In this document: one piece after another, positions 3,300 to 45,347 of the stretch
Numbering within the stretch: position 1 is the first letter of the stretch
Layout: every line of letters starts with the position of its first letter
Assembly (NCBI GenBank): GCA_964354025.1
Contig: CAYGXQ010000004.1
Coordinates: 10,239 to 74,238, forward strand
DNA: 64,000 nt
From: an uncultured Gammaproteobacteria bacterium
GTDB taxonomy: Bacteria; Patescibacteriota; Microgenomatia; 2-02-FULL-39-11
Direction: 5' to 3'
The notes under the pieces: generated by a model
The model's input: the letters and a program-made list of their open reading frames with translations, nothing else
Database searches by the model: none
Told to the model about the DNA's origin: nothing
Program-made: the position numbers and the translations under genes

Positions 3300-3674
3300 A
3301 TGTATATCATTGACACTGATGTATTGATCTGGGGATTAAGAGGTGAGGAAAAAGCGATTAAAAAGCTCTCCAAACTGAAAGAAGATACTTATCTTTCTAT
3401 CTCCGCGATCTCTATCGGAGAAATCTACAAAAATGCTTATCCATCAGAATTTGTGGAAACGGAGGAATTCATAAACCAATTTACGGTTTACGATATAAAT
3501 AGAAAAATTGCAAAGCAAGCCGGTCTTTATTGGCAGCAGTTTTCTAAAAAATTAGCAAAATTAAGTCTTGGAGATTGTATTGTTGCCGTTACAGCCAAGG
3601 AATACAATCTTACTCTGGTAACAATAAACACCCGCCATTTTCCGATGAGGGATATAAAAGTGATAAGCCCATGA
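3300..3674 (+). CDS. vapC: PIN-domain toxin VapC
   Basis: 124 aa. MYIIDTDVLI… has an N-terminal acidic residue and the usual PIN layout, paired with the upstream antitoxin. Confidence 0.7.
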   Translation: MYIIDTDVLIWGLRGEEKAIKKLSKLKEDTYLSISAISIGEIYKNAYPSEFVETEEFINQFTVYDINRKIAKQAGLYWQQFSKKLAKLSLGDCIVAVTAKEYNLTLVTINTRHFPMRDIKVISP

Positions 3675-3726
3675 AACGCAAATAATGCTTGATTATTTCG
3701 AATAGTTATGTGATTATATGTAATAT

Positions 3727-4281
3727 ATGATAGGAGAAATTCCACCAGGACAAGGAGCTCCACCCCCCCCATCCAAACCTATTGCAGGAGATTTACCCGC
3801 GAAAGATAAACCTCTGACGTTAGATGGACTTCGAAGAATATTTTTAGAAAAATGGGGATTAGATGATTTCAAACAAATTACCGCTGCCGTACCCGAAAGA
3901 GTGCCTTTGGATGCGCCACAAATGCTTGTATTAGGAAGAATGGTTCCAATGATGGTAATCCCGCGGACAAGATTAGATCAAAGAGAACTTGTCGGTGAAG
4001 ATAAATACTATTATTTTTACGCTCCAATAGGCCCTCAAGGAATGAAAACAACGGCTCTTAAACCTTTGAAACCAAACCATGAATATACTGTAGGAAAAGA
4101 AGGCGAGATTAAACCTGCAACTTATGATGTAAGATTACGATATGTTTCCAGTCAACATTGTACTCTAAAAGTGGAAGATCCTGCAGAAGGCGATGGTGGC
4201 CCGGTATTAGTAGTGACTGATACTTCATCGCTTAACGGTACTTACATGAAAAGATGGGAGACTGCCTCTTCTAAAACCTAA
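3727..4281 (+). CDS. FHA-domain protein with Pro-rich N-terminus
   Basis: The C-terminal R…VSSQHCTLKV…VVTDTSSLNGTYM matches the FHA GR…S..H…D.gS.NGT signature. The N-terminus is proline-rich (GQGAPPPPSKP). Confidence 0.5.
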   Translation: MIGEIPPGQGAPPPPSKPIAGDLPAKDKPLTLDGLRRIFLEKWGLDDFKQITAAVPERVPLDAPQMLVLGRMVPMMVIPRTRLDQRELVGEDKYYYFYAPIGPQGMKTTALKPLKPNHEYTVGKEGEIKPATYDVRLRYVSSQHCTLKVEDPAEGDGGPVLVVTDTSSLNGTYMKRWETASSKT

Positions 4282-6081: not shown

Positions 6082-7071
6082 ATGGAAAAGACGATTATCT
6101 ATGACCTGATCATTATCGGCGCGGGGCCGGCAGGGTTAACCGCTTCTATCTACGCTTCCTGTTTCCATCTCAAACATCTGGTTATCGGCTCGGTTTTAGG
6201 CGGACAGATGATAAACGCGCCTGATATCCTCAATTACCCGGGCTTTCCCGAAATCTCCGGAAAAGAATTGGCAGGCAAGATGGCGGAGCAGGTGAGCGCT
6301 CGCGGGGGAGAGATAGTTGTTAGTACTGTTATAAAGATCACAGCGGATCCTGCTACCTCAGTGAATCAAAAAAATATTTTCGAAATCGAGACGCAGGATG
6401 GAAAAAAATACCAGGCAAGATCAATAATTTTAGCAACCGGTACGGAGAGAAAGAAATTAAATGTGCCGGGAGAGGCGCAATATACAGGAAAAGGAGTATA
6501 TTACTGCGCTACTTGTGAAAAGCAGGATTACGAAGGGAAAATTTGCGCGGTGGTGGGTGGTGGAAACAGCGCCGTGCAGGCGGCGGTCGAACTGGCCCAA
6601 GCAGCAGAAAAAGTCTACATTATTTACCGGGGAACAGAGCTTCGGGGAGAACCGGTCTGGCTGGAGCAGATAAAAAATAATCCCAAGATTGAGGTGGTTA
6701 CCAACACAATCATTAATGAAATTGTGGGAGATGGGGAGAAGGTGACGGAGATAAAAATTACACCAACATCAATGGGTCCCGTATTATCCATTGATAAAAT
6801 ATTTATTGAAATCGGGGGGGTACCGGGGACAGCGCTCATCATTCCTCTTGGAGTAGAGGTCAACGGCGGAGGATATATCAAGGTAAATGAGAGGCTGGAA
6901 ACAAATATCCCGGGTGTTTTTGCCGCCGGTGATCTGGTGAAAAGCGGATTATCCATAGAACAAATTGCCACCGCCATCGGTTTGGGAGCCCGCGCCGCCG
7001 CCTCGGCCTTCGCCTTCCTCAAAGAAGATAAAATCCCCTCACTTTGGGGTCAGAGTCAGATAAAAAGGTAA
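6082..7071 (+). CDS. trxB: thioredoxin-disulfide reductase
   Basis: Starts at MEKTIIYDLIIIGAGPAGLTAS (FAD GxGxxG). Redox-active CATC, then AVVGGGNSAVQAA (NADPH site) and a C-terminal GDL…AAG. Confidence 0.8.
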   Translation: MEKTIIYDLIIIGAGPAGLTASIYASCFHLKHLVIGSVLGGQMINAPDILNYPGFPEISGKELAGKMAEQVSARGGEIVVSTVIKITADPATSVNQKNIFEIETQDGKKYQARSIILATGTERKKLNVPGEAQYTGKGVYYCATCEKQDYEGKICAVVGGGNSAVQAAVELAQAAEKVYIIYRGTELRGEPVWLEQIKNNPKIEVVTNTIINEIVGDGEKVTEIKITPTSMGPVLSIDKIFIEIGGVPGTALIIPLGVEVNGGGYIKVNERLETNIPGVFAAGDLVKSGLSIEQIATAIGLGARAAASAFAFLKEDKIPSLWGQSQIKR

Positions 7072-7075: not shown

Positions 7076-7504
7076 TTAAGGAAGACAGAGGAAATGATTC
7101 CCTGAAAATCTTTTGAAATCCTTATCAAAGCTGAAAAGAAAAGCAATCCGGTGTTTTTTAGTCAGGATGATATTGGTCGCATCGGTTAGGGAAAGAGTGT
7201 TTGGAGTAGGGTATTGTTTCAATAAATTCATCGCCTGCCAGGTATCATTTTTTGACACAGGCAGGATAACAACAATCTTTTTCCTCTCAAGATTCTTTAG
7301 TTTCCGGAAAAACTTATCAGCTTCTTTTTGACTGAGTGCGCGCCTGATTTTGGTGATTGTTTCATCGAAAACAAAAAGAGAGGTATAGATTTTAGTCTCC
7401 GTAGCAAACGACTGGAAGATTTTCACAGCCCTTGAATAATTGGAATCGGTGGGGATGAGATAACTAAGCCAGGCAGAACTGTCAATGAAAACAGAGTCAA
7501 TCAT
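7076..7504 (-). CDS. vapC: PIN-domain toxin VapC
   Basis: Likely starts at MIDSVFIDSSAW… with a PIN acidic-residue pattern. The 8-nt stop/start overlap with the upstream antitoxin is typical of TA operons. Confidence 0.6.
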   Translation of the reverse strand: MIDSVFIDSSAWLSYLIPTDSNYSRAVKIFQSFATETKIYTSLFVFDETITKIRRALSQKEADKFFRKLKNLERKKIVVILPVSKNDTWQAMNLLKQYPTPNTLSLTDATNIILTKKHRIAFLFSFDKDFKRFSGNHFLCLP

Positions 7505-7805
7505 TTTTATCCTCATAGATCTCATCAACAGTGACAGAAGTCTGAGTGGGTCCGGCTTCGAGTATCCCAGCCATGGCCAGTAGGGGATTTTTGACGCTTC
7601 TGACTTTCCTCATTTTTGCTTCTTTGATCATTCTTGCTACCTGAGGTTTGGCGGCAAATTCTTCACTGGCGAGACGGAGGGCCTGCGCCAAAGGCATGCC
7701 GTGTGTTTTGGCGTAAATCCGCAAGTCTTCCAGTAAATTTTCAGGATAATAAATCTGCAGGCGTTTCATAACTCCGAGAATAACATATAGATGTATATCT
7801 GTCAA
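7497..7805 (-). CDS. ribbon-helix-helix antitoxin (VapB-like)
   Basis: The N-terminal MKRLQIYYPENLLEDLRIYAKTHG fits an RHH DNA-binding fold. It is cognate to the downstream PIN gene; the true start may be the internal Met. Confidence 0.5.
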   Translation of the reverse strand: MTDIHLYVILGVMKRLQIYYPENLLEDLRIYAKTHGMPLAQALRLASEEFAAKPQVARMIKEAKMRKVRSVKNPLLAMAGILEAGPTQTSVTVDEIYEDKND

Positions 7806-7949
7806 GTAATAGATGTATATTAAACCAGTTTTGGCTGATTGGGGGTTTTAGAATGGGGGATTTTGAGGTGCTGGTAGGCTTTTTCGGTGGCTAAGTTAAG
7901 GTCTTGACAAAGATAATTTTGTATTGTACTGTAATATACAGGATCAGGT

Positions 7950-8267
7950 ATGAATGAAGAATTAGTTATTCCCGAAGTAATTTCTTTTGAGTGGGATACG
8001 GGCAATCTGTTAAAAAGCAAGATCAAACATAAAGTTGATTCATTGGAATGTGAGCAGATTTTCCATAATGATCCTGTTTATTTTTTTGATGAGAAACATT
8101 CGCAAAAAGAGAAACGATATGCTGTTTACGGAGAAGCAGATCAGGGTAGGAAGTTATTTATTATTTTTACAATAAGAGATGACAAGATCAGGGTGATTTC
8201 CGCCCGCGATCAGAGTAAAAAAGAAAGGAGGGTATATGAAAAAAATAAAACCAATGCCCAGATTTAA
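7950..8267 (+). CDS. brnT: BrnT-family ribonuclease toxin (DUF497)
   Basis: 105 aa. The C-terminal IRVISARDQSKKERRVYEK matches the BrnT signature, paired with the overlapping downstream RHH gene. Confidence 0.7.
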   Translation: MNEELVIPEVISFEWDTGNLLKSKIKHKVDSLECEQIFHNDPVYFFDEKHSQKEKRYAVYGEADQGRKLFIIFTIRDDKIRVISARDQSKKERRVYEKNKTNAQI

Positions 8268-8520
8268 AAAAGAAGATGAAGAAAGGGATTTTTGGGCGAC
8301 CCATGACAGTACGGAATATTTTGATACGGCCAAGCCCATAAAGCTGAGTTTTCCCAATCTTCGGCCGTCTAACAAAGCCATCACTTTGAGGCTGCCGTTA
8401 TCCCTTCTTCATGCTTTGAAGAATCTGGCCAATAAAAAAGACGTACCATATCAGTCATTGATGAAAGTTTTTCTGGCGGAAAAGGTAAGGGATGAGATAA
8501 ATTACCGGAGGTGCAAATAG
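8236..8520 (+). CDS. brnA: BrnA antitoxin (CopG/RHH-like)
   Basis: 94 aa. …ITLRLPLSLLHALKNLANKKDVPYQSLMKVFLAEKV fits the BrnA family. It overlaps the end of brnT. Confidence 0.7.
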   Translation: MKKIKPMPRFKKEDEERDFWATHDSTEYFDTAKPIKLSFPNLRPSNKAITLRLPLSLLHALKNLANKKDVPYQSLMKVFLAEKVRDEINYRRCK

Positions 8521-8565
8521 GGTTTCACCTTAGAGGTGTACTTCTCAAAAATCCGTAAGTGTATT

Positions 8566-8799
8566 TTAAGTACAGAATCCCTCTGAAGGAGCAAAAACAT
8601 TTCCTCCGCAAGATCCACAAGTATAAAGAACCCTACCGGTTTTAGGTATCTGTTCCCATTGTTCCGGATCACAAACTAAAGTACCGGTACCTCCGGGACA
8701 ATTACCATGTGGTCCTAATGTAATTTCAATTCTATAAAAACACTTGTGAAACTCAAAATATCCTTCAGTCGATTGCCTTTGTCCCTTTATCTCTTTCAT
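8566..8799 (-). CDS. small Cys-rich protein of unknown function
   Basis: 77 aa with 6 Cys in CPGGTG…C and CGSCGGN motifs (zinc-ribbon-like). It sits downstream of the 349-aa gene on the same strand. Confidence 0.3.
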   Translation of the reverse strand: MKEIKGQRQSTEGYFEFHKCFYRIEITLGPHGNCPGGTGTLVCDPEQWEQIPKTGRVLYTCGSCGGNVFAPSEGFCT

Positions 8800-8848
8800 A
8801 ATAGTCTTGTTTAGTTTATGTTTCCCTCAGGAGATAAAAGATAATAAA

Positions 8849-9898
8849 TCAATCCAGTGAATATTTTACTACTCCAGGAATTTCAGGTAAGAGGTTGAGA
8901 TCGGAATCCAAATGATTATCCGTCAGAGCCAAGGCGCAAACTCCTAAAGAAGGTAAATGCTCCAGTACAGTTATAATGTCTTTGTATAAGATCGAAAATC
9001 CAAAAATAGTCTTCATGCCCCGTGTTGTATTTATAACAGCCTCATCTTGAAAAATTAAGCGATTAGTTGTATCTCGGATACGTTCTCCTTCAATAAGCGC
9101 GTAATTGTCAGGATTAATAATCTTTTGAGCAAATAATTCTTCCATTGTCATATCGGCTAATTTAGCGTATTCAGGACTCAGGCTTAATCTTGCTACCCGG
9201 GGATTTTCCTTACCGCCGGGTTTGATATATTTATCTAAAATCATAAAGATTTTTGCAGCCAAAATGGAAGCGGCCGGAGCTACTGCTTCTAGCTTACCAA
9301 AAGGCAATTTATGGGGAAAAGGTTTAGGTTTATTTTTATCGAAATCTACTTGGACATCATTTTCGTCAGAATCAACGATAAGAACCGGTTTTCGTCTTGT
9401 ATCCGTAGGAGAGTATAAGTCCCGGATCTGTTTGATCAGTCCCTGGGCTTGTTGGCTGTTTGGACCAGCAGTTTTTGAGATTGCCAAAAGAGCGCTAAAG
9501 CCTTTGACAATAATGACAGGATTCAATAATGTTTTACCACTTATGGGTTCTGCAGAAAAAACTTCCAGTTCACCCGGGGAAACTTGAGGAAAATCAGCTT
9601 GAAGTTGTTTTGTCAATTTGGCACATGTGGCAACTGTCTGTTTCTCATCTCTGAAATCCACGAAATCAACCTGTGCTTTATTTTCGATTAATTTTTCTCC
9701 AAGCTTATCGAGAATAGTCGTTCCCTCACCGGTAAAACCGGATGGGATGATTCGTCCGTGAGGATGCTGGTAACAGGCACAGGTAGTCAATTTTCCTATG
9801 AGCCAATCAACGTATCTTGTCTTTACATGTTCGCCAACAGCGGAAAATTGTTGTTGTTCGAAAGATTGTAGGGTATTATCTGGAGTATTGGTAGCCAT
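8849..9898 (-). CDS. hypothetical protein (349 aa), cargo of islet 1
   Basis: Long uninterrupted ORF. No motif I can assign with confidence. Confidence 0.4.
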   Translation of the reverse strand: MATNTPDNTLQSFEQQQFSAVGEHVKTRYVDWLIGKLTTCACYQHPHGRIIPSGFTGEGTTILDKLGEKLIENKAQVDFVDFRDEKQTVATCAKLTKQLQADFPQVSPGELEVFSAEPISGKTLLNPVIIVKGFSALLAISKTAGPNSQQAQGLIKQIRDLYSPTDTRRKPVLIVDSDENDVQVDFDKNKPKPFPHKLPFGKLEAVAPAASILAAKIFMILDKYIKPGGKENPRVARLSLSPEYAKLADMTMEELFAQKIINPDNYALIEGERIRDTTNRLIFQDEAVINTTRGMKTIFGFSILYKDIITVLEHLPSLGVCALALTDNHLDSDLNLLPEIPGVVKYSLD

Positions 9899-9899
9899 A

Positions 9900-10928
9900 T
9901 CAGATTAATTTTTCTTGTTTAGCCTCGGAAGAATGTCTGATTTTGAGGTGCTGGTAGGCTTTTTCGGTGGCCTGGCGGCCGCGGGGAGTCCTTTTTAAGA
10001 AACCGATTTGCATAAGATAAGGTTCGAGAACTTCTTCAATCGTGCCGATATCCTCAGAGAGGGTGGCCGCCATAGTTTCCACTCCGACCGGGCCGCCGCC
10101 ATGCTTTTCGATCAAAGCTTTAAGAAACCTCCGGTCACTGTCATCAAGCCCCAGCTGGTCAATTTCCAGAAGGGAAAAAGCCTCGGCTAAAACTTCCTCG
10201 TCAATATTTTCTTTACTTTTTACCTGGGCAAAGTCACGGGCCCGTTTGAGAAGTTTCAGGCCGATTCTTGGCGTGCCGCGGGCACGAATGGAAAGGGATT
10301 TAAGGGAATCGGGGGAAATATGGATCTTCAGTTTCTTTGAGGCATTACGGATAATTTCTTCCAGTTCTTTCGGTTCATAAAATTGCAGTCTTTGGACAAT
10401 GCCGAAGCGGTCGCGAAGGGGAGCGGACATGAGGCCGATCCGGGTGGTGGCGCCGATGATGGTGAATTTCGGCAAGTCAAGCCGGAGCGTCCTGGCTGAG
10501 GGGCCTTTGCCGATGACGATATCCAAGGCAAAATCCTCCATAGCCGGATACAAAGTTTCCTCAACCACTTTATTGAGCCGGTGGATTTCATCGATAAACA
10601 AAACATCGCCCGGTTCAAGGTTAGTCAAAATCGAAGCCAGGTCACCCGATCTTTCGATGGCCGGACCGCTGGTAACGCGGATATTGACACCCATTTCTTT
10701 GGCGATCAGGTGGGCCAAAGTGGTTTTGCCAAGTCCCGGCGGGCCGTATAAAAGCGTGTGTTCAAGCGATTCTTTCCTTTTTTTGGCGGCGGTGATGGCT
10801 ACATGGAAGGATTGTTTGACGCGGGACTGGCCGAAGAACTCCGACCAGGCAGAAGCGCGAAGGGAGGTAAAGAGTTTTTCCTCTTCCACGTCCGGTACTT
10901 GTTTATTGGTGGATGGTTTAGTAGTCAT
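9900..10928 (-). CDS. ruvB: Holliday junction branch-migration ATPase RuvB
   Basis: [22 protein letters not shown] (Walker A), DEIHRL (Walker B) and a winged-helix C-terminal domain. Confidence 0.9.
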
Positions 10929-10972: not shown

Positions 10973-11548
10973 CTATTTCTTCCCCAGCCACTTCAGCGAC
11001 TGTCTTATTTTATCAGATACCGAGCCCTCGAAATCTTTCAGGGATTTGAGCGCTTCCCGGCTTTCGGCAGGAGTAAAGCCGAAGGATTTCAAAGCATCGA
11101 TAATCTCTTTGGTTTCACCGCTGTCGGCACTTAAATCAAGAAGGCCGAGATTGCCCAACTTGCTTCGCAGTTCAATAATGATTTTCTGGCTGTTTTTGGT
11201 CCCTAAACGGGGAACACCGGTGAAAAAGGAAACGTCGCCTTTGATGATGGCTTCTTTGATTTTGGGCAGTTTACCGTTACTAAAAATCGAAAGGGCGGTT
11301 TTCGGGCCAATGCCGGAAACCGATAATAGAAGTTCAAACATGGCCAGTTCGTCAGGAGTCTCGAAACCGTAGAGATCAAGAGCATCTTCCTTGACATGGG
11401 TATGGATGAAAAGAGAAATAGGCGAATTAAGGGAAATACGGGAGAGAATATCGGTTGGGACCGAAACTTTGTAGCCGACGCCATTAATAAGAATTGTTAG
11501 ATAGTTAAGCCCTTTAAACTTTATTGTGCCTTCGAGATAAGAGATCAT
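10973..11548 (-). CDS. ruvA: Holliday junction DNA helicase RuvA
   Basis: MISYLEGTI…YGF…ELFELLLSVSGIGPKTALSI shows the RuvA OB fold plus HhH motifs. It lies upstream of ruvB. Confidence 0.85.
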   Translation of the reverse strand: MISYLEGTIKFKGLNYLTILINGVGYKVSVPTDILSRISLNSPISLFIHTHVKEDALDLYGFETPDELAMFELLLSVSGIGPKTALSIFSNGKLPKIKEAIIKGDVSFFTGVPRLGTKNSQKIIIELRSKLGNLGLLDLSADSGETKEIIDALKSFGFTPAESREALKSLKDFEGSVSDKIRQSLKWLGKK

Positions 11549-11555
11549 GTTTAGT

Positions 11556-11626
11556 AGCGTCTAGCGTCTAGAAATTAGCGTCTAGTTAAAATATAACTAA
11601 ACGCTAGACGCTAGTAACTAGACGCT
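11556..11626. repeat. TAGCGTCTAG-unit palindromic element (ruvA-ruvC spacer)
   Basis: TAGCGTCTAGCGTCTAGAAATTAGCGTCTAG-TTAAAATATAA-CTAAACGCTAGACGCTAGTAACTAGACGCT: three direct units on the left and their reverse complements on the right. Confidence 0.65.
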
Positions 11627-12108
11627 TTCATTTTATTTACTTTATACGAAAAACAGTGGGTTAACGCAATAGCCGCTGCATCTGAAACATCGTCGGGAGT
11701 AAGGATTTGCGGAAGTTTGAAAATAGTCTTCACCATCTGCTGGATCTGGTTTTTGTCCGCCCGGCCGTAACCGGTAAGAGCCATTTTTACCTGGAGAGGA
11801 GTGTATTCGAATATGGGAACCTTATTTTGGCAAAGGGCCAGTTGGACGACTCCCCGGGCTTGGCCGACGATCAGGGCGGTTTTGGTATTGGTGCCCCAAA
11901 AGAGACTTTCCAAAGCGCAGACTTCGGGGTGATATTTTCGGATAAGGGAAGTAAGCGACTTATGTAGTTTAAGTAACCTAAGGGAGGAAGATGAGGAAGA
12001 GGAAGTGAGAATAGTATCACTGTGTTTGAGGATGACTTTGCCTTTTTCTTCCAAAACAAGGGCAATTCCGGTGATGGCGATGCCGGGATCAATGCCGAGG
12101 ACTAGCAT
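11611..12108 (-). CDS. ruvC: crossover junction endodeoxyribonuclease RuvC
   Basis: MLVLGIDPGIAITGIALV… is the RuvC RNase-H-like N-terminus. It carries an in-frame poly-Ser (SSSSSSS) insertion. Confidence 0.85.
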   Translation of the reverse strand: MLVLGIDPGIAITGIALVLEEKGKVILKHSDTILTSSSSSSSLRLLKLHKSLTSLIRKYHPEVCALESLFWGTNTKTALIVGQARGVVQLALCQNKVPIFEYTPLQVKMALTGYGRADKNQIQQMVKTIFKLPQILTPDDVSDAAAIALTHCFSYKVNKMKASSY

Positions 12109-13257: not shown

Positions 13258-13355
13258 CGATTACTCATTTTGATATCTTGCCAAGGAGAAAATGTTTGTG
13301 GTATAAATTGAGTTTAACAGGAAGATCCTTCGATCCGCCAGCTGGCGGACTCAGG

Positions 13356-16145
13356 ATGACGATGACTGATATGGTCAAATTTGTCTATTTCTTCGGCGGG
13401 GGCAAGGCAGACGGCGATGAAAGTATGAAAAATCTGCTCGGCGGCAAAGGGGCCAATCTCGCTGAAATGGCCGGACATAAAGATCTCCAATTGCCTGTTC
13501 CTCCCGGTTTTACCATCACCACCGAAGTCTGCACTCAATACTTCGAAAACAAAAAAACCTTCCCTAAAAGTCTCCGCGATGAAGTCCACCAAGCTCTATC
13601 CAAAGTAGAGAAACTGATGGGTAAGAAATTCGGCGATCCTAAAAATCCCTTACTCGTTTCCGTCCGCTCCGGAGCCCGCCGGTCAATGCCGGGGATGATG
13701 GAGACGGTTCTTAACGTCGGCCTGACCGAAAAAACCATCCCCGGGATGATTGAAAGAACCAACGGCAACGAGCGGTTTGTTTACGACGCATACCGCAGAC
13801 TGATAATGATGTATTCGGACGTGGTGATGGAAAAAGCGGCCGGGATTGACCCTTCGACTACGCTCAGGGTCAATGGTGAGCGAAGTCGAACCATTGAACC
13901 AGCCAATGATGAGGCGGGCATCCGCAAACGTCTGGAAAAAATTATGACTGGCATGAAAAAAGAAAAGGGAGTCAAAAATGACACAGATTTGGATGAAAAA
14001 GATTTAAAGAAATTGTGCCTTCTGTTTAAACAGGAAGTGAAGAAGGTTTTGAAAAAGGATTTTCCCGATGACCCGTACGAGCAGTTATGGGGCGGGATTG
14101 CGGCGGTTTTTTCCTCATGGAACGGCAGAAGAGCCGTCTCATACCGAAGAATTGAAAATATTCCGCAAAGTTGGGGGACAGCGGTCAACGTCCAATCAAT
14201 GGTTTTCGGCAACATGGGGCAAGATAGTGCTACCGGTGTCGGCTTTACCAGAAATCCGGGTAACGGTAACAACCATTTTTACGGCGAGTACCTGACCAAT
14301 GCCCAGGGCGAGGATGTGGTGGCCGGGATCAGGACACCCTCTCCGGTCAACGAGTGGTCAAAAAGCGAACACAATCGGAATTTAATCAGCATGGAGAAAG
14401 GGATGCCGGCTTTGTACAAAGAACTTTTTAATATCCAAAAAAGACTGGAAAAACATTATCGTGACATGCAGGATATCGAGTTTACGGTGGAAAAGGGCCG
14501 TTTATTTATGCTCCAGTGCCGTATTGGCAAACGTAACGGTCCGGCGGCCGTCAAGATGGCGGTGGATATGGTGAAAGAGAAGTTGATTACTCCAAAAGAA
14601 GCAGTGATGAGAGTGACTCCCGGTCAACTGGACGAACTGCTTCATCCCATCATCGATCCCAAAGAGGAAATGGCGATTATACCGATTGCCAAAGGTTTGC
14701 CGGCCGGGCCGGGAGGGGCAGGAGGCGAGATTGTTTTCAGTGCGGCAGCAGCAGTTAAATGGGCTAAAGAAGGCAAACAAGTGATTTTGGTCCGTGAAGA
14801 AACCAATCCTGAAGATGTGGAGGGGATGAGAGCAGCCCAGGCCATATTGACAGCCCGCGGAGGTATGACTTCGCACGCGGCTCTGGTGGCCCGCGGCTGG
14901 GGAAAATGCTGTGTCGTCGGTTGCGGGGCGCTTCATATTGATTATTTGGACAAAAAAATGGTCGTTGGCGATAAGACTTACCATGAGGGCGACTGGTTGA
15001 CTTTAAACGGTAGCAAAGGGGCGATTTATGAGGGGAAATTAGCGATGGTTGAAGTATCGCAGGAGAATAAAAACCTAAATGAATTTTTGAAACTCTGTGA
15101 CCGGTTTCGCAAACTGAAAATCCGCACCAATGCTGATACTCCGGATGATTCAAAAAGGGCGCGGGCTTTTGGGGCTGAAGGGATCGGTCTTTTCCGGATC
15201 GAACACATGTTTTACGGCAAAGGCAGCGATAAAGCCCTTTTTCTCCTTCGCAAAATGATTGTTTCCAAAAGCGAAGAGGAAAGACAAAAAGCCTTAAACG
15301 AGCTTTTCCCTTATATGAAAGCGGATATCAAAGGTACGCTTTCAGTCATGCGGGGTCTGCCGGTGACCATCAGGCTGATGGATCCGCCCCTGCATGAATT
15401 TGTCCCCAGGGAAAGAAAACAGCAGGAAGAGCTTTGTAAAGATTTGAAGATCAGTTTGTCCGATTTCCAAAAAAGGGCTAACGCCCTTCATGAAAGCAAT
15501 CCGATGATGGGACATCGGGGAGTAAGACTGGGGATCACCTATCCGGAAATCACCCGGATGCAGGTGAGGGCGATTTTTGAGGCAACCGCCCAACTTCTCA
15601 AAGAGAAAATCAAAGTCCTGCCAGAAATAATGATCCCGGTTTTGGGCGAGGTAAAGGAATATTCCCATCAGAATGAAATTATTAAAGAAGTTTACCGGGA
15701 AGTTTTGCAAAAATATTCCCTGAAAAAAATTCCCCATCTGGTAGGGACCATGATTGAGATTCCCAGAGCGTGCATCACTGCCGGAAAAATTGCCGGAGAA
15801 GCCGAATTTTTCTCCTTTGGCACTAATGATCTGACCCAGATGGGTTTTGGTTTTTCCAGAGATGACATCGGCAGCTTTTTACCTGAATATTTAAGCAAGG
15901 GAATTCTGCCGGAGGATCCTTTTGCCACGATAGATGAAGAGGGGATTGGAGAGCTGATCAGTATGGCCATTATTCGCGGACGAAAGGTGAGAAAAGACCT
16001 GAAGATCGGCATCTGCGGCGAACACGGAGGGGATCCCCAGTCAATACATTTTTGCCATAAAAACGGGATGAATTATGTATCCTGTTCGCCCTTCCGCGTG
16101 CCGATTGCCAGATTAGCCGCCGCCCAGGCGGTTTTGGGAAAATAA
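13356..16145 (+). CDS. ppdK: pyruvate, phosphate dikinase
   Basis: The full PPDK architecture is present: N-terminal ATP-grasp (GGKGANLAEM), central phospho-His (GGMTSHAALVARGWG) and a C-terminal PEP-utilising TIM barrel. The start is taken at MTMTDMVKF; the upstream part of the ORF overlaps a palindromic repeat. Confidence 0.9.
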   Translation: MTMTDMVKFVYFFGGGKADGDESMKNLLGGKGANLAEMAGHKDLQLPVPPGFTITTEVCTQYFENKKTFPKSLRDEVHQALSKVEKLMGKKFGDPKNPLLVSVRSGARRSMPGMMETVLNVGLTEKTIPGMIERTNGNERFVYDAYRRLIMMYSDVVMEKAAGIDPSTTLRVNGERSRTIEPANDEAGIRKRLEKIMTGMKKEKGVKNDTDLDEKDLKKLCLLFKQEVKKVLKKDFPDDPYEQLWGGIAAVFSSWNGRRAVSYRRIENIPQSWGTAVNVQSMVFGNMGQDSATGVGFTRNPGNGNNHFYGEYLTNAQGEDVVAGIRTPSPVNEWSKSEHNRNLISMEKGMPALYKELFNIQKRLEKHYRDMQDIEFTVEKGRLFMLQCRIGKRNGPAAVKMAVDMVKEKLITPKEAVMRVTPGQLDELLHPIIDPKEEMAIIPIAKGLPAGPGGAGGEIVFSAAAAVKWAKEGKQVILVREETNPEDVEGMRAAQAILTARGGMTSHAALVARGWGKCCVVGCGALHIDYLDKKMVVGDKTYHEGDWLTLNGSKGAIYEGKLAMVEVSQENKNLNEFLKLCDRFRKLKIRTNADTPDDSKRARAFGAEGIGLFRIEHMFYGKGSDKALFLLRKMIVSKSEEERQKALNELFPYMKADIKGTLSVMRGLPVTIRLMDPPLHEFVPRERKQQEELCKDLKISLSDFQKRANALHESNPMMGHRGVRLGITYPEITRMQVRAIFEATAQLLKEKIKVLPEIMIPVLGEVKEYSHQNEIIKEVYREVLQKYSLKKIPHLVGTMIEIPRACITAGKIAGEAEFFSFGTNDLTQMGFGFSRDDIGSFLPEYLSKGILPEDPFATIDEEGIGELISMAIIRGRKVRKDLKIGICGEHGGDPQSIHFCHKNGMNYVSCSPFRVPIARLAAAQAVLGK

Positions 16146-16933: not shown

Positions 16934-17213
16934 AGACTCTCCTTTCTTTTCTGCTCATATCTCTTGCAGAGATAATTCTGACGCTATCGTTTCTTACAGT
17001 AAAAGATATAAATATAAATCTGTCAGTATCAGTCTTGCCTAACGCCTGATATCTGCGCTCTGTCTTTGAATGTTCTCTATCTTCAGAAACTAATAACGGT
17101 TTATTTTCAAAAACATTCTCCGCCTCCTTATTTGTCACTCCATGCTTTTTTAGGTTTTTATCGATATTACCTTTATTCCATTCAAAAGATAACGGCGCAG
17201 GTAATATCTTCAT
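16920..17213 (-). CDS. brnT: BrnT toxin (second paralog)
   Basis: …VRIISARDMSRKERRVYEKV. Paralog of the brnT at 7950-8267. Confidence 0.65.
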   Translation of the reverse strand: MKILPAPLSFEWNKGNIDKNLKKHGVTNKEAENVFENKPLLVSEDREHSKTERRYQALGKTDTDRFIFISFTVRNDSVRIISARDMSRKERRVYEKV

Positions 17214-22941: not shown

Positions 22942-23472
22942 ATGGATATTACTGACGACCAAAACGAATTGTTTGATATCGTGGATGAGGATGATCAGGT
23001 CATTGGTCAGGCGAGAAGGGGAGAAGTACATAAGGATAAGAAGTTGATCCATCGGAGTGTGAGTATTCTGGTTTTCAATGACTGGGGCGAGTTGTATCTG
23101 CAGAAGCGGTCAGCCACTAAAGACACAGATCCGGGTATATGGACGGTTTCCGCCTCCGGTCATGTGGAAGTGGGGGATAATTATGAGGAAACAGCGCATA
23201 GAGAACTACGGGAGGAATTGGGGATCGATATGGAGATTTCTTTTGTTGATAAATTCCTCTGTCGCGCTCCACATGAAACGGAGATGACAGCCATCTTTAA
23301 AGCCTTTCATAACGGTCCTTTTAAGTTAAACAAAGAGGAAATATCCGATGGTAAATTCTTTACCCGTAAAGAGCTAAATGAGGCAGTAAAAAAAGGAGAA
23401 ATTGACTTGAGTTTTATGGGAAGGCAGGTTTTGGAAAGAGTGGGGTGGATTTTAGGGCGAATTCCAAAATAA
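22942..23472 (+). CDS. NUDIX hydrolase
   Basis: GHVEVGDNYEETAHRELREELGI matches the Nudix box GX5EX7REUXEEXGU. Confidence 0.75.
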   Translation: MDITDDQNELFDIVDEDDQVIGQARRGEVHKDKKLIHRSVSILVFNDWGELYLQKRSATKDTDPGIWTVSASGHVEVGDNYEETAHRELREELGIDMEISFVDKFLCRAPHETEMTAIFKAFHNGPFKLNKEEISDGKFFTRKELNEAVKKGEIDLSFMGRQVLERVGWILGRIPK

Positions 23473-24624
23473 CATCTGCATTTTGGATTCGCCACAAAGG
23501 GCCGCAATCCTAAATAATTGTAAACATTATTTAGGAGCGAGCCCTTAGAGCAACTTTTTAATTTCCGAAATTGTCGATCTTTGTTTTGTCTGCAATTCCC
23601 TGATTTTTTTTACCCGTTCAATCATCGAAGGGTCAAATAACTGGTAACCGCCTTTGGTGAAACCCGCAACCGGTAATAATCCCTCTTTTGTCCAATACCT
23701 GATGGTATGGATTGTTTCATTGGTTGCCTTTGCCAATTCCCCGATTTTGAGGGAGGATTTCTCAGGTGAAAACTTTTTCAGGACCGGCTGTTTTTCTTCG
23801 ACAGCCCTGGTGAACATATCAAGAGAATTTTCAACTGCTTTTTCAATGAAAGCGTAGAAGGGTTGAAGATCATTTTTGGTTTGTCCGGTAAAAATAGCGT
23901 CAAGATATTGGGTGCGTTCTTCGTTTTTTATGATGGCCATGGGATACCCGTTTAAAAGCAAAATAAGATTCATCAGAAGCCTGGCTGTCCTTCCATTACC
24001 GTCAACGAACGGATGGATAGATACCAACTTAAAATGAGCATCGGCGGCAATTCTGACGGGATGATTTTCCTGTTGTCCTTCCAGCCAGCGGAAAAAGTCT
24101 TTCATCAGTGGCGGTACCTGACGGGGGAGGGGAAATTCAGTGTCAACACCCCGGATAAAAATTTCCGTTGCCCGATACCGGCCGGCCCAAAGATCATTGA
24201 TGCGGGTTAGAATAATTTTATGGATTGCCAATACATCAGCTTCGGAAATATATTGATGTCCCTTCAGTTTTGTGGAAAGCTCTTTGATGTAATCGACTGC
24301 TTGCGCGTGATTAATCGCCTCCAATTGATCTTGGAGCGGCTTGCCGCTGATAACCGCAGTGACACCTCTTTCGATCACTTCCGCAGTCTCAAGGCGGGAG
24401 AGGGTATTGCCTTCAATGGCATTTGAAGAATAAGTCAGTTCAACCTTTAGCCATTCCTCAAGGTTTTTGATCAGTTCAGGCGGCAACGGTCTGTATTTAT
24501 CCAATTGCCGTTTTTTCTCCGTCAGGATTTTTAATAGGCTGTCCATACCTAGAAGTATAAAGCAATGCTTTATGGTTGTCAAGTTATTGATGGGAAGAAA
24601 GGTTTTGGAGAGGGTGGGGTGGAT
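23416..24624 (+). mobile_element. putative integrated cargo islet 2 at the NUDIX gene 3' end, bounded by a ~35-bp imperfect direct repeat
   Basis: ATGGGAAGGCAGGTTTTGGAAAGAGTGGGGTGGAT (23416-23450, end of the nudix CDS) recurs as ATGGGAAGAAAGGTTTTGGAGAGGGTGGGGTGGAT at 24590-24624. The only gene between the copies is Fic-MerR. Confidence 0.45.
23545..24582 (-). CDS. Fic-family AMPylation protein fused to a MerR-type HTH
   Basis: HPFVDGNGRTARLLMN matches the Fic motif HPFx(D/E)GNGRxxR. The C-terminal IGELAKATNETIHTIRYWTKEGLL is a MerR-like HTH. Confidence 0.8.
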   Translation of the reverse strand: MTTIKHCFILLGMDSLLKILTEKKRQLDKYRPLPPELIKNLEEWLKVELTYSSNAIEGNTLSRLETAEVIERGVTAVISGKPLQDQLEAINHAQAVDYIKELSTKLKGHQYISEADVLAIHKIILTRINDLWAGRYRATEIFIRGVDTEFPLPRQVPPLMKDFFRWLEGQQENHPVRIAADAHFKLVSIHPFVDGNGRTARLLMNLILLLNGYPMAIIKNEERTQYLDAIFTGQTKNDLQPFYAFIEKAVENSLDMFTRAVEEKQPVLKKFSPEKSSLKIGELAKATNETIHTIRYWTKEGLLPVAGFTKGGYQLFDPSMIERVKKIRELQTKQRSTISEIKKLL

Positions 24625-24628
24625 AAAA

Positions 24629-26020
24629 TTAGCGAATGCCGTATTTGATTAAACGTTTGGCTTCGATCCGCAGGACTTCCGGAATCAGAGCTTTGTAGAC
24701 ACTGCAATACGGTGAAGAGGTATCATACCGCCCTTTTTGTTGATAGGTAAGTAAGGGGCAGCCGCCACCACAAAGGTATTTCCACTGACAATTCTTACAA
24801 GGAGTTTTACCTAATACAGTCAAACCAATTGGTCTGACAAAATTACCTTTTATCATTGTCTCCATCAAATCAGGATCATCAATAGAGCCGATCGGTTTCT
24901 CCAAAGTCATCTGACAGCTTGATAGCTTTCCCTGATGGTTAATGACCAGATAACCGTAGCCCATGCCGCAGGGATGAAAATGGGGTTTGCTGAAATTTAC
25001 CCGGTCCAAAAGACTGTCCATCACCGGATATTCAGGCGGATTGTCATAAAGATATTGATAGGCTTTTTTTAATTTTTTAACTAACTTTTTATCATTGCCT
25101 TCCAATTCTTCGGTAACATAAGGATTTTCACGATAGAAATTAAAAGCAAAATGGATCTTCCGGTCAAGCAAATATTTCGTCAACTCGGGAATTCCGTCAA
25201 TGTTTTTGGATGAAATAGTCACGGAGACATTAAAAGGAACTTTAGCTTTTATTAAATTATTTATCCCTTTTATCACCAGATCAAAACTGCCAATACCAGA
25301 AGGAAATATTCTTGTCCGGTCGTGAAATTTTTTCAAACCGTCAAGAGAAACTGCCGCCCGAAGGTTATTCTCTTTTAATATTATAGCCACTTTCTCATTA
25401 ATCAGGATGCCATTGGTCAAAACGACAAAATCAGTTTTGATGCCGTATTTCTTGCTTAAACTTTTAGCCTGTTTGACAAGTGTGAGAATCATCGGCAGTT
25501 CCAAAAGAGCTTCTCCGCCGGAGAATTTCAGGGCAACTTTTTCAATCCCGTGTTTTTTGGCAGACAGGTATACTTGATCAATGGCTTTCTTGCCGACTGC
25601 CGGACTCATCTTCTCTACGGTTTTGCGGACATAACAATAAGTGCAACGCAAATTACACTGGTTGATGATATGCAGCCAAACGCTGATGATTTTGGGTTTT
25701 TTGGCTGATAATTCCAGCAGGGTCTTGGGTTTACCGAAATAAATGATTTCTGAAGCGTATAAATCTTTGAAAGTCTGTTTAATGACGGAAAACTTGATTT
25801 TGGGAACTTGTTTTTGAGCTGACTGCCAAATATCCTCAAGCGTCTTTTTCCCGTCTATCAAAGAGTACAAAAAAGCGGCATCCTTATTTAAGACAACTAA
25901 ACCTTTTTCCGAAAGAGGAGCGTAAACCAATAAAAAACCCTCCACTTTATCCGTATAAGTCTCCGGATAAAAGCAAGGGACAGAAGAAGCGGTTAAATCA
26001 GAGTTTAAACTCATCCGCAT
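24629..26020 (-). CDS. radical SAM/SPASM maturase with N-terminal PqqD-like RRE
   Basis: CNLRCTYCY (CxxxCxxC) and GGEALL (SAM glycine motif). A C-terminal CKNCQWKYLCGGGC (Cx2Cx5Cx3C SPASM) follows, and the first ~100 aa (GLVVLNKDAAFLYSLIDGKKTLEDIW…) resemble a RiPP recognition element. Confidence 0.8.
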   Translation of the reverse strand: MRMSLNSDLTASSVPCFYPETYTDKVEGFLLVYAPLSEKGLVVLNKDAAFLYSLIDGKKTLEDIWQSAQKQVPKIKFSVIKQTFKDLYASEIIYFGKPKTLLELSAKKPKIISVWLHIINQCNLRCTYCYVRKTVEKMSPAVGKKAIDQVYLSAKKHGIEKVALKFSGGEALLELPMILTLVKQAKSLSKKYGIKTDFVVLTNGILINEKVAIILKENNLRAAVSLDGLKKFHDRTRIFPSGIGSFDLVIKGINNLIKAKVPFNVSVTISSKNIDGIPELTKYLLDRKIHFAFNFYRENPYVTEELEGNDKKLVKKLKKAYQYLYDNPPEYPVMDSLLDRVNFSKPHFHPCGMGYGYLVINHQGKLSSCQMTLEKPIGSIDDPDLMETMIKGNFVRPIGLTVLGKTPCKNCQWKYLCGGGCPLLTYQQKGRYDTSSPYCSVYKALIPEVLRIEAKRLIKYGIR

Positions 26021-32854: not shown

Positions 32855-32927
32855 GGGCTCGTAGTTCAACCGGTAGAACATCTCATTTGCAATGAGAAGG
32901 TAGGCGGTTCGAGTCCGCCCGGGTCCA
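32855..32927 (+). tRNA. tRNA-Ala (anticodon UGC)
   Basis: Hand-folded cloverleaf: acceptor GGGCUCG/CGGGUCC with two GU pairs, D-stem GUUC/GAAC, anticodon stem UCUCA/UGAGA with loop UUUGCAA, T-arm GGCGG-UUCGAGU-CCGCC. No encoded CCA. Confidence 0.75.
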
Positions 32928-32932
32928 CTTTT

Positions 32933-32999
32933 TAGCGTCTAGAGGTTAGCGTTTAGCGTTTAGAAAAAACTATACGCTAGACGCTAGTAACTAAACGCT
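32933..32999. repeat. TAGCGTCTAG-unit palindromic element (between tRNA-Ala and 23S)
   Basis: TAGCGTCTAGAGGTTAGCGTTTAGCGTTTAG-AAAAAACTATA-CGCTAGACGCTAGTAACTAAACGCT. The right arm is 22/23 identical to the ruvA-ruvC copy. Confidence 0.65.
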
Positions 33000-33051
33000 G
33001 ATATTGGCTCTTTAAAAAGTGAATAGAATGTAAGTATTGGACACATCTTTA

Positions 33052-36116
<3,065 letters not shown>

Positions 36117-36183
36117 GATGTCAAGGATACTTATTCTATTCACTTTTTAAGGCGCTAAATAAGCACTTTTTACATTCGAATCT

Positions 36184-36299
36184 TTCGGTCTTTTGAGCGG
36201 AGTGGTACTACCTCTTCCCATACCGAACAGAATCGTAAAACGCTCCAGCGCCGACGATAGTTTAGGCGCAAGCCTAAGCGAAAATAGGTCAAGGCCGAA
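36184..36299 (+). rRNA. rrf: 5S ribosomal RNA
   Basis: …GGUACUACCUCUUCCCAUACCGAACAGAAUCGUAAAACGCUCCAGCGCCGA… matches the conserved 5S loop C/helix III regions. The terminal helix pairs UUCGGUC with GGCCGAA. Confidence 0.8.
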
Positions 36300-36367
36300 G
36301 GATTTGAGTGTAAAAAGCATATGCTATAATAAAGCAATCTTACAAAGAAAGGACGGTATGAGAACAA

Positions 36368-40432: not shown

Positions 40433-40461
40433 TTGACAAGTATTTTTCTGAGTGTTAGAAT
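40433..40461 (+). promoter_or_regulatory. sigma70-like promoter (TTGACA-17-TAGAAT)
   Basis: TTGACA at 40433-40438, a 17-nt spacer, then TAGAAT at 40456-40461. Confidence 0.4.
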
Positions 40462-40586: not shown

Positions 40587-40768
40587 TTGCAGGTAAATGT
40601 ATTGATCTTGGGATGGGGAATCGGATGTAGGGCAGGCGTCCGATTTCCCTTTCGAGGGTCAATCGGCAATAATTACGCGTCTAGAGAGTGTAATTTGAGG
40701 AGACTTTGATAATCTTCGTCGTTCCGCTTTCAAAAACCATTTTTTACAGTATTCACGTTAATCCCGCT

Positions 40769-40797
40769 TGACAAGTGGCGCAATTCGCGTTAAAATA
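40769..40797 (+). promoter_or_regulatory. sigma70-like promoter of the COG1373 ATPase gene (TTGACA-17-TAAAAT)
   Basis: CTTGACAAGTGGCGCAATTCGCGTTAAAATAG immediately upstream of ATG 40806. Confidence 0.4.
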
Positions 40798-44352: not shown

Positions 44353-44751
44353 TCAGAGAAGCTTCACGAAGCCTGATTTTTTAGTTTTCTCAAAAAGTTT
44401 TTTATCAGCGGTGATTAGTTGGGTGTTCAGTCTTTTAGCGAGAAATATATAGGAGTAATCATAAAAACTGATGTTAACATCGTGAGCTTCATTAATTATC
44501 TTATTCCAATCTTGAAAGGTCAAGTCATGGTATGATAAAGGTAATTCTTCAAGAATTTTACCGGCCTGTTCAATTTTATCTTCTGAGTAGGGTTTATGAA
44601 AGAGAAGTGAGTTGCCTATCTCATAATAAAGGAGTCTGGGAACAGACACGGATATTTTTCTCTCTTTAATATCCGCAAATAAAACAAGGGCTTTTTCCGT
44701 TCCCTCTTCAATGATAAACCATTTAAAAATAACGGAAGAATCAAGTATCAT
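44353..44751 (-). CDS. vapC: PIN-domain toxin VapC
   Basis: 132 aa. MILDSSVIFKWF… has PIN acidic residues. It lies directly downstream of the antitoxin, 5 bp apart. Confidence 0.6.
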   Translation of the reverse strand: MILDSSVIFKWFIIEEGTEKALVLFADIKERKISVSVPRLLYYEIGNSLLFHKPYSEDKIEQAGKILEELPLSYHDLTFQDWNKIINEAHDVNISFYDYSYIFLAKRLNTQLITADKKLFEKTKKSGFVKLL

Positions 44752-44756
44752 TATTA

Positions 44757-45092
44757 CTATTTCTCATTCCGGTAATGTGTATGTGTCTTTAACCACTTTT
44801 TACCATAGCGTTCATCACGCATCTTGCGGATAAATTCGGTGGATGATAAACCACCAAAACCATTTTTATTTGATCCCCAAGTCTTCCGCCAGTTTTCAAG
44901 CATTTTTGAAACTCTTTCAAGACGATCTGCATGCTTCTTTTCTTCAATCTCTCTCTTTTTCTCCTCAAAAGGATACATCACCACCACGGGTTCATTTTGT
45001 CTCTCCACGATCATAGGTTCGCCGGTGGCAATCACCCGGTCAATGATTTCCCCGAATTTTTGCCTGAAGGTGAGAGCGCTGACGGTATTCAT
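44757..45092 (-). CDS. Phd/YefM-type antitoxin
   Basis: Start taken at MNTVSALTFRQKFGEIIDRVIATGEPMIVERQNEPVVVMYPFEE (YefM fold). The longer upstream ORF extension is probably not translated. Confidence 0.5.
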   Translation of the reverse strand: MNTVSALTFRQKFGEIIDRVIATGEPMIVERQNEPVVVMYPFEEKKREIEEKKHADRLERVSKMLENWRKTWGSNKNGFGGLSSTEFIRKMRDERYGKKWLKTHTHYRNEK

Positions 45093-45168
45093 TATGATAA
45101 TGATACTATCATATGATATATTATATATCAATTGCTTCCACGGTAACCCTCCACGAGTTTCCGAAAAT

Positions 45169-45272: not shown

Positions 45273-45347
45273 AAAGTTTTGCCAAATCCTGAACGATTAC
45301 AACCAGACTTGTTTAATCAGGAAGCAGGCATGTTATAATTCTGGAAA

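Follow-up and report, generated by a model that had tools for sequence, protein, structure and literature searches.

Displaced 3' ends of ruvB and two other housekeeping genes beside putative toxin-antitoxin and defence-type cargo in a candidate-phyla genome

Some integrative elements insert at the 3' end of a protein-coding gene, among them e14 and phage 21 (icd) and ICESt1/3 (fda); replacement ends at such targets are already known for integrase-bearing elements and hence are not new. Homology-facilitated illegitimate recombination in natural transformation was reportedly described by de Vries and Wackernagel in 2002 and by Prudhomme et al. in 2002. Cis-mobilizable elements (CIMEs) keep attL and attR and have lost their integration genes (PMC5704250). 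The microcin H47 genomic island of E. coli has imperfect direct repeats and no recombinase of its own, and recombines within identity segments between the repeats (PMC3191183; PMC5426353). C-terminal displacement in Rhs and CdiA genes leaves dissociated or 'orphan' tips (Jackson et al. 2009, PMC2935791; Poole et al. 2011, PMC3150448), and homologous recombination via circular intermediates was proposed as the mechanism for Rhs (PMC2935791). In Neisseria, minimal mobile elements form gene-content hotspots driven by homologous recombination (PMC3787668). Here we analyzed a stretch of 64,000 nucleotides (nt) from contig CAYGXQ010000004.1 (assembly GCA_964354025.1) of a Gottesmanbacteria-like groundwater bacterium with a tiny genome. 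This whole 64-kb stretch is called the window, and all coordinates are window coordinates. In it, the 3' ends of ruvB, of a NUDIX hydrolase gene and of a gene for a DUF2298 membrane protein each occur twice, once in the intact gene and once as a displaced fragment on the far side of inserted cargo.

Candidate-phyla bacteria have genomes of ~1 Mb with few recognisable mobile elements and with abutting or overlapping gene ends. To our knowledge, their gain of defence and toxin-antitoxin genes is poorly understood. The new aspect reported here is the presence of displacement scars in housekeeping genes of a candidate-phyla genome, three of them in 64 kb.

Displaced gene ends at three loci

ruvB (9900-10928, minus strand) is an intact open reading frame (ORF) of 342 amino acids (aa) with its stop codon at 9900-9902; ruvA (10973-11548) and ruvC (11611-12108) lie upstream on the same strand. 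A segment near its 3' end (9930-9971) recurs as a direct repeat at 7850-7891 with 39/42 identical bases. All three mismatches are consecutive, and 7859-7891 matches 9939-9971 at 33 of 33 positions, which gives an exact 33-nt core. A sequence-only reading of this stretch had described the repeat as the last ~42 bp of ruvB; the 39/42 identity stands, but the copy in ruvB lies 31-72 nt upstream of the gene end and not at the very end. Exactly two copies are present in the window when up to 3 mismatches are allowed, and 0 are expected from 100 shuffles. A dispersed motif was rejected as an explanation, as the 42-mer and its 33-mer core occur only at the two window sites and, among 171 fetched loci, only in the window's own Logan contig L161.

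In the intact gene the core is followed by tail A (9900-9938, minus strand, stop included). The second copy belongs to a pseudogene fragment at 7820-7891 (minus strand), which consists of the core and a different tail, tail B, and reads IPHSKTPNQPKLV up to its stop codon. Its flank is related to that of ruvB at the protein level, as had been proposed: the similarity reaches both stops over 23 aa with 70% identity (tblastn within the window, E=2.8e-7). The last ~30 nt of ruvB showed no significant DNA similarity to the remnant, and no ruvB similarity was found upstream of the sharp 5' edge of the remnant at 7891/7892. The old ruvB end survives as a truncated yet recognisable ruvB tail, and ruvB has been kept intact through an imported tail. 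The block inserted at this locus (locus 1) measures 2,080 bp.

The gene order read from the sequence alone was borne out by ORFs and Pfam: ruvB(-), a 349-aa gene X(-), a 77-aa gene(-), a CopG/BrnA-type antitoxin gene(+), brnT(+), the remnant(-), an RHH-PIN pair(-), and then convergent trxB. X (8849-9898) is an ORFan whose ATG lies 1 nt past the ruvB stop (TGAtATG). The Cys-rich 77-aa ORF (8566-8799) has only a sub-threshold DUF7129 match and was also called as a gene on L161. BrnT (105 aa, 7950-8267), convergent to ruvB, and the antitoxin (94 aa, 8236-8520) are predicted by profile to form a type II toxin-antitoxin pair (PF04365, E=1.7e-19, 70.3 bits against a cut-off of 34.5; PF12441, E=1.8e-29, 102.7 bits against a cut-off of 28), and the two genes overlap by 32 nt. 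A TTGACA -35 box upstream of brnT (7911-7916, plus strand) lies 20 nt from the remnant edge; it was read by eye, its -10 box being weak and below the threshold of the promoter scan. Beyond the inserted block lie the resident neighbours, an RHH antitoxin gene (7497-7769) and a PIN toxin gene (7076-7504), both assigned by Pfam and with exact proteins of these starts on record. Their promoter-like site (7777-7805, minus strand, TTGACA-17-TATTCT, TG-extended) starts 15 nt past the remnant stop and has ATATACATCTAT direct repeats on its flanks. trxB (6082-7071, plus strand) is the conserved far flank of the ruvB-trxB interval.

The same pattern had been noted at two further loci, and both were confirmed. 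At locus 2 the host is a NUDIX hydrolase gene (22942-23472, plus strand) with its intact repeat copy at 23413-23450. The cargo is a convergent gene for a Fic-MerR protein resembling SoFic/PDC-S04 (23545-24582, minus strand), whose promoter-like site (24582-24554, TTGACA-17-TATACT) lies 5 nt from the remnant. The displaced NUDIX tail (24587-24652, plus strand) ends in LLMGRKVLERVGWIKLANAVFD and a stop codon, and its repeat copy (24587-24624) matches the intact one at 33/38 positions. The last 24 nt (eight codons) of this tail overlap the 3' end of a convergent radical-SAM gene (24629-26020), and the displaced tail therefore marks the original end of the NUDIX gene.

At locus 3 the host is the DUF2298 gene (41936-44296, minus strand, intact repeat copy 41955-41996). 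The cargo is a convergent gene for an AAA_14-DUF4143 ATPase (40806-41939, plus strand; PADLOC PDC-S01, E=2e-144), and its stop codon overlaps the new DUF2298 stop. A promoter-like site precedes it at 40768-40796 (plus strand, TTGACA-17-TAAAAT). The displaced DUF2298 tail, KMVFESGTTKIIKVSSNYTL with its stop codon, occupies 40681-40744 (minus strand), and the repeat copies (41955-41996 and 40703-40744) are identical at 35/42 positions. A related locus, L172, provides the empty site: it carries GT4, a 317-aa gene, DUF2298, a spacer of ~1 kb, radA and an S1-domain gene, and no ATPase. The L172 spacer that follows the intact gene is orthologous to the DNA past the window's DUF2298 remnant, including 48 nt at 94% identity. 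Because the spacer after an intact gene matches the DNA after the remnant, the ATPase gene and the new tail are the inserted part.

The 48-nt match is an observation in its own right. It covers window 40602-40649 and L172 4436-4483, although identity in the flanking protein reaches only ~69%. Some 150 nt upstream there is a strong promoter-like site (TTGACA-17-TAGAAT with TG); the coordinates 40433-40461 belong to the same observation. The radA-DUF2298 spacer may hold a conserved small RNA or regulatory element.

The three scars have several features in common. In every case the repeat coincides with the final conserved block of the host protein (RuvB, the NUDIX hydrolase or the DUF2298 membrane protein), past which comes a short variable tail; the exchanged ends are 5-13 residues long. 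All remnants measure 64-72 nt and have a sharp 5' edge, and the -35 box of the cargo promoter lies 5-25 nt away from it. Between the repeats of loci 2 and 3 the longest identical run is at most 11 bases, and gapped DNA alignment past the repeats gave nothing significant at any of the three loci. Judged from the matches (BrnT/BrnA at locus 1, Fic SoFic/PDC-S04 at locus 2, ATPase PDC-S01 at locus 3), the predicted cargo is of the toxin-antitoxin or defence type at all three. The NUDIX and DUF2298 genes underwent an event of the same type as ruvB.

A tail scan, in which the C-terminal 30 residues of all ORFs of 90 aa or longer were compared with the window, detected only these three non-paralogous cases, and N-terminal and internal-piece scans of the window revealed no further remnants. 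Applied to the surroundings of ruvB in other bacteria (1.59 Mb), the tail scan gave at most one comparable case (L074). A hybrid-query protein search for close relatives of the NUDIX and DUF2298 loci returned best matches of only 48-69% identity.

We searched the islets for recombination machinery. No recombinase or transposase domain was found in them or among the ~45 window ORFs of at least 120 aa, a search limited to these 64 kb; the absence of an integrase from the first islet had been noticed before. No motif is common to the three cores. The repeat regions fold no better than shuffled sequences (z -0.75 to +1.1), and neither attC-like hairpins at the repeats nor terminal inverted repeats at the islets were detected. 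An 8-mer beside all three remnants, TTGTCAAG, was considered as a shared junction motif and rejected: read on the opposite strand, it is the TTGACA -35 box of the outward-facing cargo promoters. An integron gene cassette was rejected on the missing attC-like hairpin and the lack of an integrase in the window. A transposon or insertion sequence was also rejected, as there are no transposase domain and no terminal inverted repeats, and the repeats are ~40 nt long, imperfect and, at locus 1, run into orthologous diverged tails. A search of IMG/VR gave no relatives of X, the ATPase or Fic, and a phage origin of the cargo was dropped for want of viral relatives. Site-specific integration, as suggested by the sequence-only reading, is not supported: no recombinase was found among the ~45 window ORFs, the cores have no shared motif, hairpins and terminal inverted repeats are missing, and loci 2 and 3 offer no more than 11 identical bases in a row.

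Accessory genes of similar types also occur without a displaced tail. A PIN gene and an FHA-protein gene (3300-4281) are missing from syntenic L166, a Phd-PIN pair adjoins the DUF2298 gene (44353-45173), and a second PDC-S01-type ATPase gene lies at 47156-48556. Some insertions leave no remnant. A second BrnT-like coding sequence (~16950-17207, minus strand), 43-53% identical to the islet BrnT, was noticed in the PPDK-PEPCK gap, where no ORF of at least 120 aa is listed; it may represent another small toxin-antitoxin insertion.

The ruvB-trxB interval in relatives

The best RuvB matches are from Gottesmanbacteria/Microgenomates. The RuvB C-terminus follows a common pattern across 120 relatives, in which the 'KIP' tail type is the family-wide ancestral state. 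Relatives with an empty site had been named beforehand as a test of the insertion, and they were found: ruvB abuts trxB in L166, L167 and L173/L174. In L166 (RuvB 90% identical to the window in aa, tail IPHPKSPNQQKLI with stop codon, no X) the convergent trxB end lies 13 nt from the ruvB stop; in L167 (87%) trxB lies 211 nt past ruvB; and in L173/L174 (81%) the two genes overlap by 4 nt. The functional tails of L166 and L167 are the nearest matches to tail B of the remnant and agree with it codon for codon, a relationship that is clear at the DNA level too. The insertion of a block with a replacement 3' end, the old end being left behind, is therefore upheld by a remnant tail orthologous to functional tails of block-free relatives.

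Tail A was seen only in the window, L162 and L163-165, and X always starts 1 nt past its stop. In L162 (96% aa identity over the C-terminal part of RuvB) tail A and X are followed by trxB 5 nt past X, and no remnant is present. In L163-165 (90%), tail A precedes a truncated X and then another, convergent gene; trxB was not seen before the L163 contig end. Yet another content is found in L082 (81%), where genes for 737 aa and 95 aa lie between ruvB and trxB. With conserved flanks and at least five different contents among relatives, the ruvB-trxB interval is a gene-content hotspot. The RHH-PIN pair also adjoins trxB in L175 with 83% nt identity, and the L175 contig begins at the promoter of the pair. 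Among 158 other ruvB loci, none has a ruvB-tail remnant downstream and none has the cargo, which rules out a widespread element targeting ruvB. As for an empty-site allele in the same population, a constructed protein of RuvB with tail B is not on record and the RuvB cluster has a single member; an exact-protein look-up of RuvB gave no match.

The distribution of X does not follow the ruvAB bodies. L163, which has X, and L166, which lacks it, are 91-92% identical to each other in ruvA and in the body of ruvB, and 84-86% identical to the window there. Because L163 and L166 are sisters by the ruvA/ruvB body, the presence of X and tail A departs from the host tree. In their ruvB alignment, identity is ~95% at columns 120-780, drops to ~85% for the 200 nt that follow and reaches 67% in the tail. 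Homologous replacement of the 3' part of ruvB together with the downstream region, with a crossover inside ruvB and not at a fixed site, would leave such a step.

X matches no Pfam or PADLOC family, has only 4 matches among 1.84 billion representative proteins, and its AlphaFold2 model is unusable (pLDDT 35). Homologues were located in L162 (363-1400; 72% identical to the window) and in L163-165 (68%; cut to 229 aa, at 4829-5518 in L163). The X genes of L162 and L163 are 87% identical to each other, and 77-80% identical to that of the window. The earlier treatment of the 349-aa gene as free cargo did not hold: its only close homologues lie 1 nt past the ruvB stop, in three lineages including the window, and in L162 it is the sole gene between ruvB and trxB. 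X is, on this evidence, a lineage-specific, ruvB-linked gene that would be swapped among relatives along with its ruvB tail, and not a free passenger of an integrative element. The 1-nt distance in three lineages suggests co-translation with RuvB and possibly a RuvAB-linked role. X was also considered as a hidden recombinase and rejected (no family match; its distant homologue P0124 is without a Pfam domain).

Two further observations concern these relatives. The contigs of three assemblies all stop 52-61 nt past the truncated X (L163 5519-5579, L164 2706-2766, L165 1107-1158), and their ends fall inside the 3' end of a convergent membrane-protein-like ORF, which suggests a repeat or a strain-variable boundary. 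In L173/L174 (276-8553) the order trxB-ruvBAC-EamA-NUDIX-GDH-DsbA takes up ~8.5 kb. In the window (6082-32647) this backbone is stretched over ~26 kb by the addition of PPDK, PEPCK, an aminotransferase, a WbsX-like gene, a radical-SAM gene and a 1308-aa GNAT protein, and the window's lineage looks unusually expanded.

Support for the assembly was examined with Logan contigs (k=31) of two sequencing runs, ERR3804374 and ERR3804373. These contigs span both repeat copies at loci 2 and 3; three of the four match the window at 100%, and the fourth, L171, carries 4 mismatches (99.87% identity). The k=31 contigs of locus 1 stop within the 33-nt core: L161 corresponds to window 9968 to 7859, and L176 and L177 end at 7888. 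The first 30 nt of L161 equal its last 30 nt, and the contig graph fits an integrated block or an empty site plus a circle equally. The integrated order at locus 1 rests on the 76,834-bp source contig, from which RuvB with tail A is recorded, and on L162 and L163-165, in which the ruvB body, core, tail A and X are contiguous.

Origin of the scars

The data show an insertion that brought a replacement tail and displaced the old one, empty sites in relatives, and no recognisable machinery in 64 kb. Our preferred reading, held with middling confidence, is that the islet at locus 1 arose by homology-driven 3'-end displacement with DNA from a diverged relative and is not a self-mobilising integrative element. 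We infer a join driven by homology, an origin of the DNA in relatives and a selective filter on the products. In the ancestral state, ruvB would have ended in a 'KIP'-type tail, directly followed by the RHH-PIN promoter and then trxB. The 2,080-bp segment, carrying an alternative ruvB tail, the ruvB-coupled ORFan X, the 77-aa gene and the brnT/brnA cassette, would have been placed between the ruvB body and the old tail, starting within the last conserved ruvB block. The join on the gene side may have used this short conserved block as homology. In topology the product is what one homologous crossover would give if a circle with the core, the alternative tail and the cargo recombined with the chromosome, the model put forward for Rhs displacement (PMC2935791); equally, one homologous crossover in the gene could have been combined with an illegitimate join just inside the end of homology after DNA uptake.

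A compactness filter may explain the position of the scars. Convergent gene ends abut or overlap in these genomes (ruvB/trxB in L173, NUDIX/radical SAM in the window), and the scar would be seen at 3' ends because only insertions with a replacement tail that spare the downstream gene end or promoter would survive. Toxin-antitoxin or defence-type cargo would favour retention. No sign of dedicated machinery was found in the window. The location of the repeats at the last conserved blocks and the jump in divergence ~200 nt upstream of the ruvB stop both agree better with homologous exchange among relatives than with a fixed att site. The polarity at locus 1 is indicated by the remnant, which lies directly before the RHH-PIN promoter, by the RHH-PIN-trxB arrangement common to L175 and by the ancestral 'KIP' tail.

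Several points weigh against homology-driven displacement. Uniform remnants of 64-72 nt, a sharp edge and a promoter 5-25 nt away are unexpected from random illegitimate joins, and this regularity hints at cassettes with defined ends. A donor arrangement with the same far junction was not found. L162 has X and no remnant, and at least two kinds of event are therefore needed. The crossover in the window's own ruvB was not placeable from site patterns (few informative sites, many of them specific to L166). Competence and RecA activity in the host organism are assumed, and the recombinase search covered these 64 kb. The regularity could also point to a dedicated cassette-capture process in ultra-compact candidate-phyla genomes, a proposal we consider doubtful. 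It may be independent of a recombinase or use an unrecognised one: promoter-bearing defence or toxin-antitoxin cassettes with defined ends, each including a housekeeping 3' end of ~65-70 nt, would move among relatives, pair with the last conserved block and displace the resident tail. Uniform remnant length and a junction-near promoter would be the signatures of such capture, and X might take part.

A different origin would be non-autonomous or decayed site-specific islets of the CIME kind, whose att site lay within the host gene's 3' end and whose tyrosine or serine recombinase was lost or is encoded elsewhere; we regard this as possible, though on balance unlikely. Such islets classically leave direct repeats of ~40 nt with a sharp outer edge, a gene end supplied by the insert, and unoccupied sites in relatives. 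The uniform remnants, the cassette-like cargo with a promoter near its edge and the 33-nt identical core at locus 1 fit this picture too. The retention of attL and attR after loss of the integration genes is how CIMEs are defined (PMC5704250), and the direct-repeat-flanked H47 island excises and integrates without its own recombinase (PMC3191183). However, there is no recombinase in the islets or the 64 kb, and the three unrelated cores would require three specificities. The repeats of loci 2 and 3 have at most 11 identical bases in a row; such a run would do for the overlap region of a tyrosine recombinase, and conservation alone predicts the same. No full-length parent element was present at ruvB in the 158 other ruvB loci, X is stably tied to ruvB in three lineages with L162 lacking a second repeat, and the divergence between L163 and L166 shifts ~200 nt upstream of the core and not at a fixed crossover site. 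A long target-site duplication by a transposition- or integrase-like enzyme of unknown kind cutting ~40 nt apart, the repeats having since drifted, would agree with the similar repeat lengths (42, 38 and 42 nt) and with the lack of significant DNA similarity beyond them at any locus. Both tails at locus 1 are genuine ruvB tails of two lineages, which is impossible from duplication and excludes it there; the mismatches at locus 1 are consecutive and stand beside 33 identical bases, no transposase or terminal inverted repeat accompanies the islets, and L162 is without a second copy. For the three loci as a whole we give duplication very little credence.

The polarity at locus 1 could also be the reverse, with ruvB(tail A)-X-77aa-brnTA as the resident arrangement and the ruvB-tail fragment as a passenger on an RHH-PIN (and trxB) fragment from a relative, anchored in trxB and joined illegitimately upstream of brnT. 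L162, the closest relative by trxB and the RuvB C-terminus, does carry tail A and X, and it matches the window core at 32/33 positions (the last base differs), so that core identity is no proof of a crossover there; the RHH-PIN pair is itself accessory, being missing from L166, L167 and L173. This reversal is nevertheless improbable. Both flanks of locus 3 are syntenic with L172, which makes the ATPase gene and the new tail the inserted part there, and the three loci look alike; RHH-PIN lies beside trxB also in L175, and the 'KIP' tail is ancestral across the family. The event class would in any case be unchanged: one side joined through homology, the other illegitimately. Finally, locus 1 could be an assembly artefact, the chromosome being ruvB(tail B)-RHH-PIN and the 2,080-bp block a separate circle, or the allele of another strain, threaded through the 33-nt repeat. 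The break of the k=31 Logan contigs in the core would be expected from this, and the identical ends of L161 fit an empty site accompanied by a circle. On the other side, the ruvB body, core, tail A and X stand in one piece in three independently assembled relatives (L162, L163-165), RuvB with tail A is recorded from the source contig, the same architecture was reproduced at loci 2 and 3 in two independent assemblies, and the block is without a replication gene. An artefact is thus very improbable.

If homology-driven displacement is the correct reading, its reach may go beyond these loci. The three like scars in 64 kb (at most one was found in the 1.59 Mb surveyed around other ruvB genes) suggest that such events are a major local route of gene gain. 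Imported DNA appears to pair with the final conserved codons of a housekeeping gene and to supply a replacement tail of its own. Were this general, short displaced gene tails would be a simple signature by which to date and count acquisitions in metagenome-assembled genomes and to find hotspots without integrases, and 'C-terminal displacement', so far described for polymorphic toxin genes, would extend to ordinary genes.

Remaining features of the window and comparison with known systems

Two kinds of intergenic repeats were noticed elsewhere in the window. One kind is dispersed and built on the palindrome GATCCGCC(A/G)GCTGGCGGA; its copies reach 87 nt, show 67-98% identity and have the look of repetitive extragenic palindromic elements or miniature inverted-repeat transposable elements. 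They lie at 13323-13362, 45168-45281, 54269-54355, 58428-58514 and 59478-59517, and one is inside a spurious-looking 363-aa ORF (44824-45915). Short arrays of TAGCGTCTAG-like units occur at 11554-11626, 32932-32999, 56476-56507, 58137-58168 and 59582-59613; these sites include the ruvA-ruvC gap and a position just past the tRNA upstream of the 23S rRNA. The tandem PMT_2 glycosyltransferase paralogues (49685-51355 and 51369-53036) are 93% identical over the 3'-terminal 300 nt and ~71% further upstream, which looks like recent 3'-end gene conversion, and a similar, weaker case is seen in the pair 54414-56348 and 56363-58375. At 32855-36300 a tRNA, the 23S rRNA (3049 nt versus a 2925-nt model) and the 5S rRNA stand together with no adjacent 16S, an unlinked rRNA arrangement. 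L172 has a LAGLIDADG ORF beyond the S1-domain gene, on the side where the window has its rRNA genes.

Compared with integrative elements and CIMEs, the islets have the flanking direct repeats, the element-borne gene end, the old end on the far side and the empty sites in relatives in common. They differ in having no integrase in or near them, in their tiny size (1.2-2.1 kb), in repeats that are imperfect at two loci and in that no parent element is known. The H47 island is larger (13 kb), its repeats are not a host gene end, and its excision and integration have been shown experimentally, whereas the islets of the window are known from sequence alone.

The ruvB-trxB interval resembles a minimal mobile element, being a fixed interval with cassettes that vary among relatives, probably exchanged by crossovers in the flanking genes. 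Two flanking crossovers leave no duplicated gene end, however, and the three scars of the window need an extra or a different step. Homology-facilitated illegitimate recombination offers one homologous anchor in a conserved gene, foreign DNA beyond it, a second join without homology and no element enzyme. The events described usually delete recipient DNA and do not duplicate 64-72 nt, and a regular position of the join is not predicted.

Displacement at Rhs and CdiA genes differs in its hosts, which here are ruvB, NUDIX and DUF2298 genes with short, functionally equivalent tails and not toxin domains. The cores in the window are only 33-42 nt long, each locus has one displaced tail and no array, and the putative cargo consists of toxin-antitoxin or defence genes and not of cognate immunity genes. 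The likeness lies in the architecture: in both cases an intact gene with a new 3' end is accompanied by one or more genes, no recombinase is encoded, and the displaced old end keeps a piece of the core as a direct repeat.

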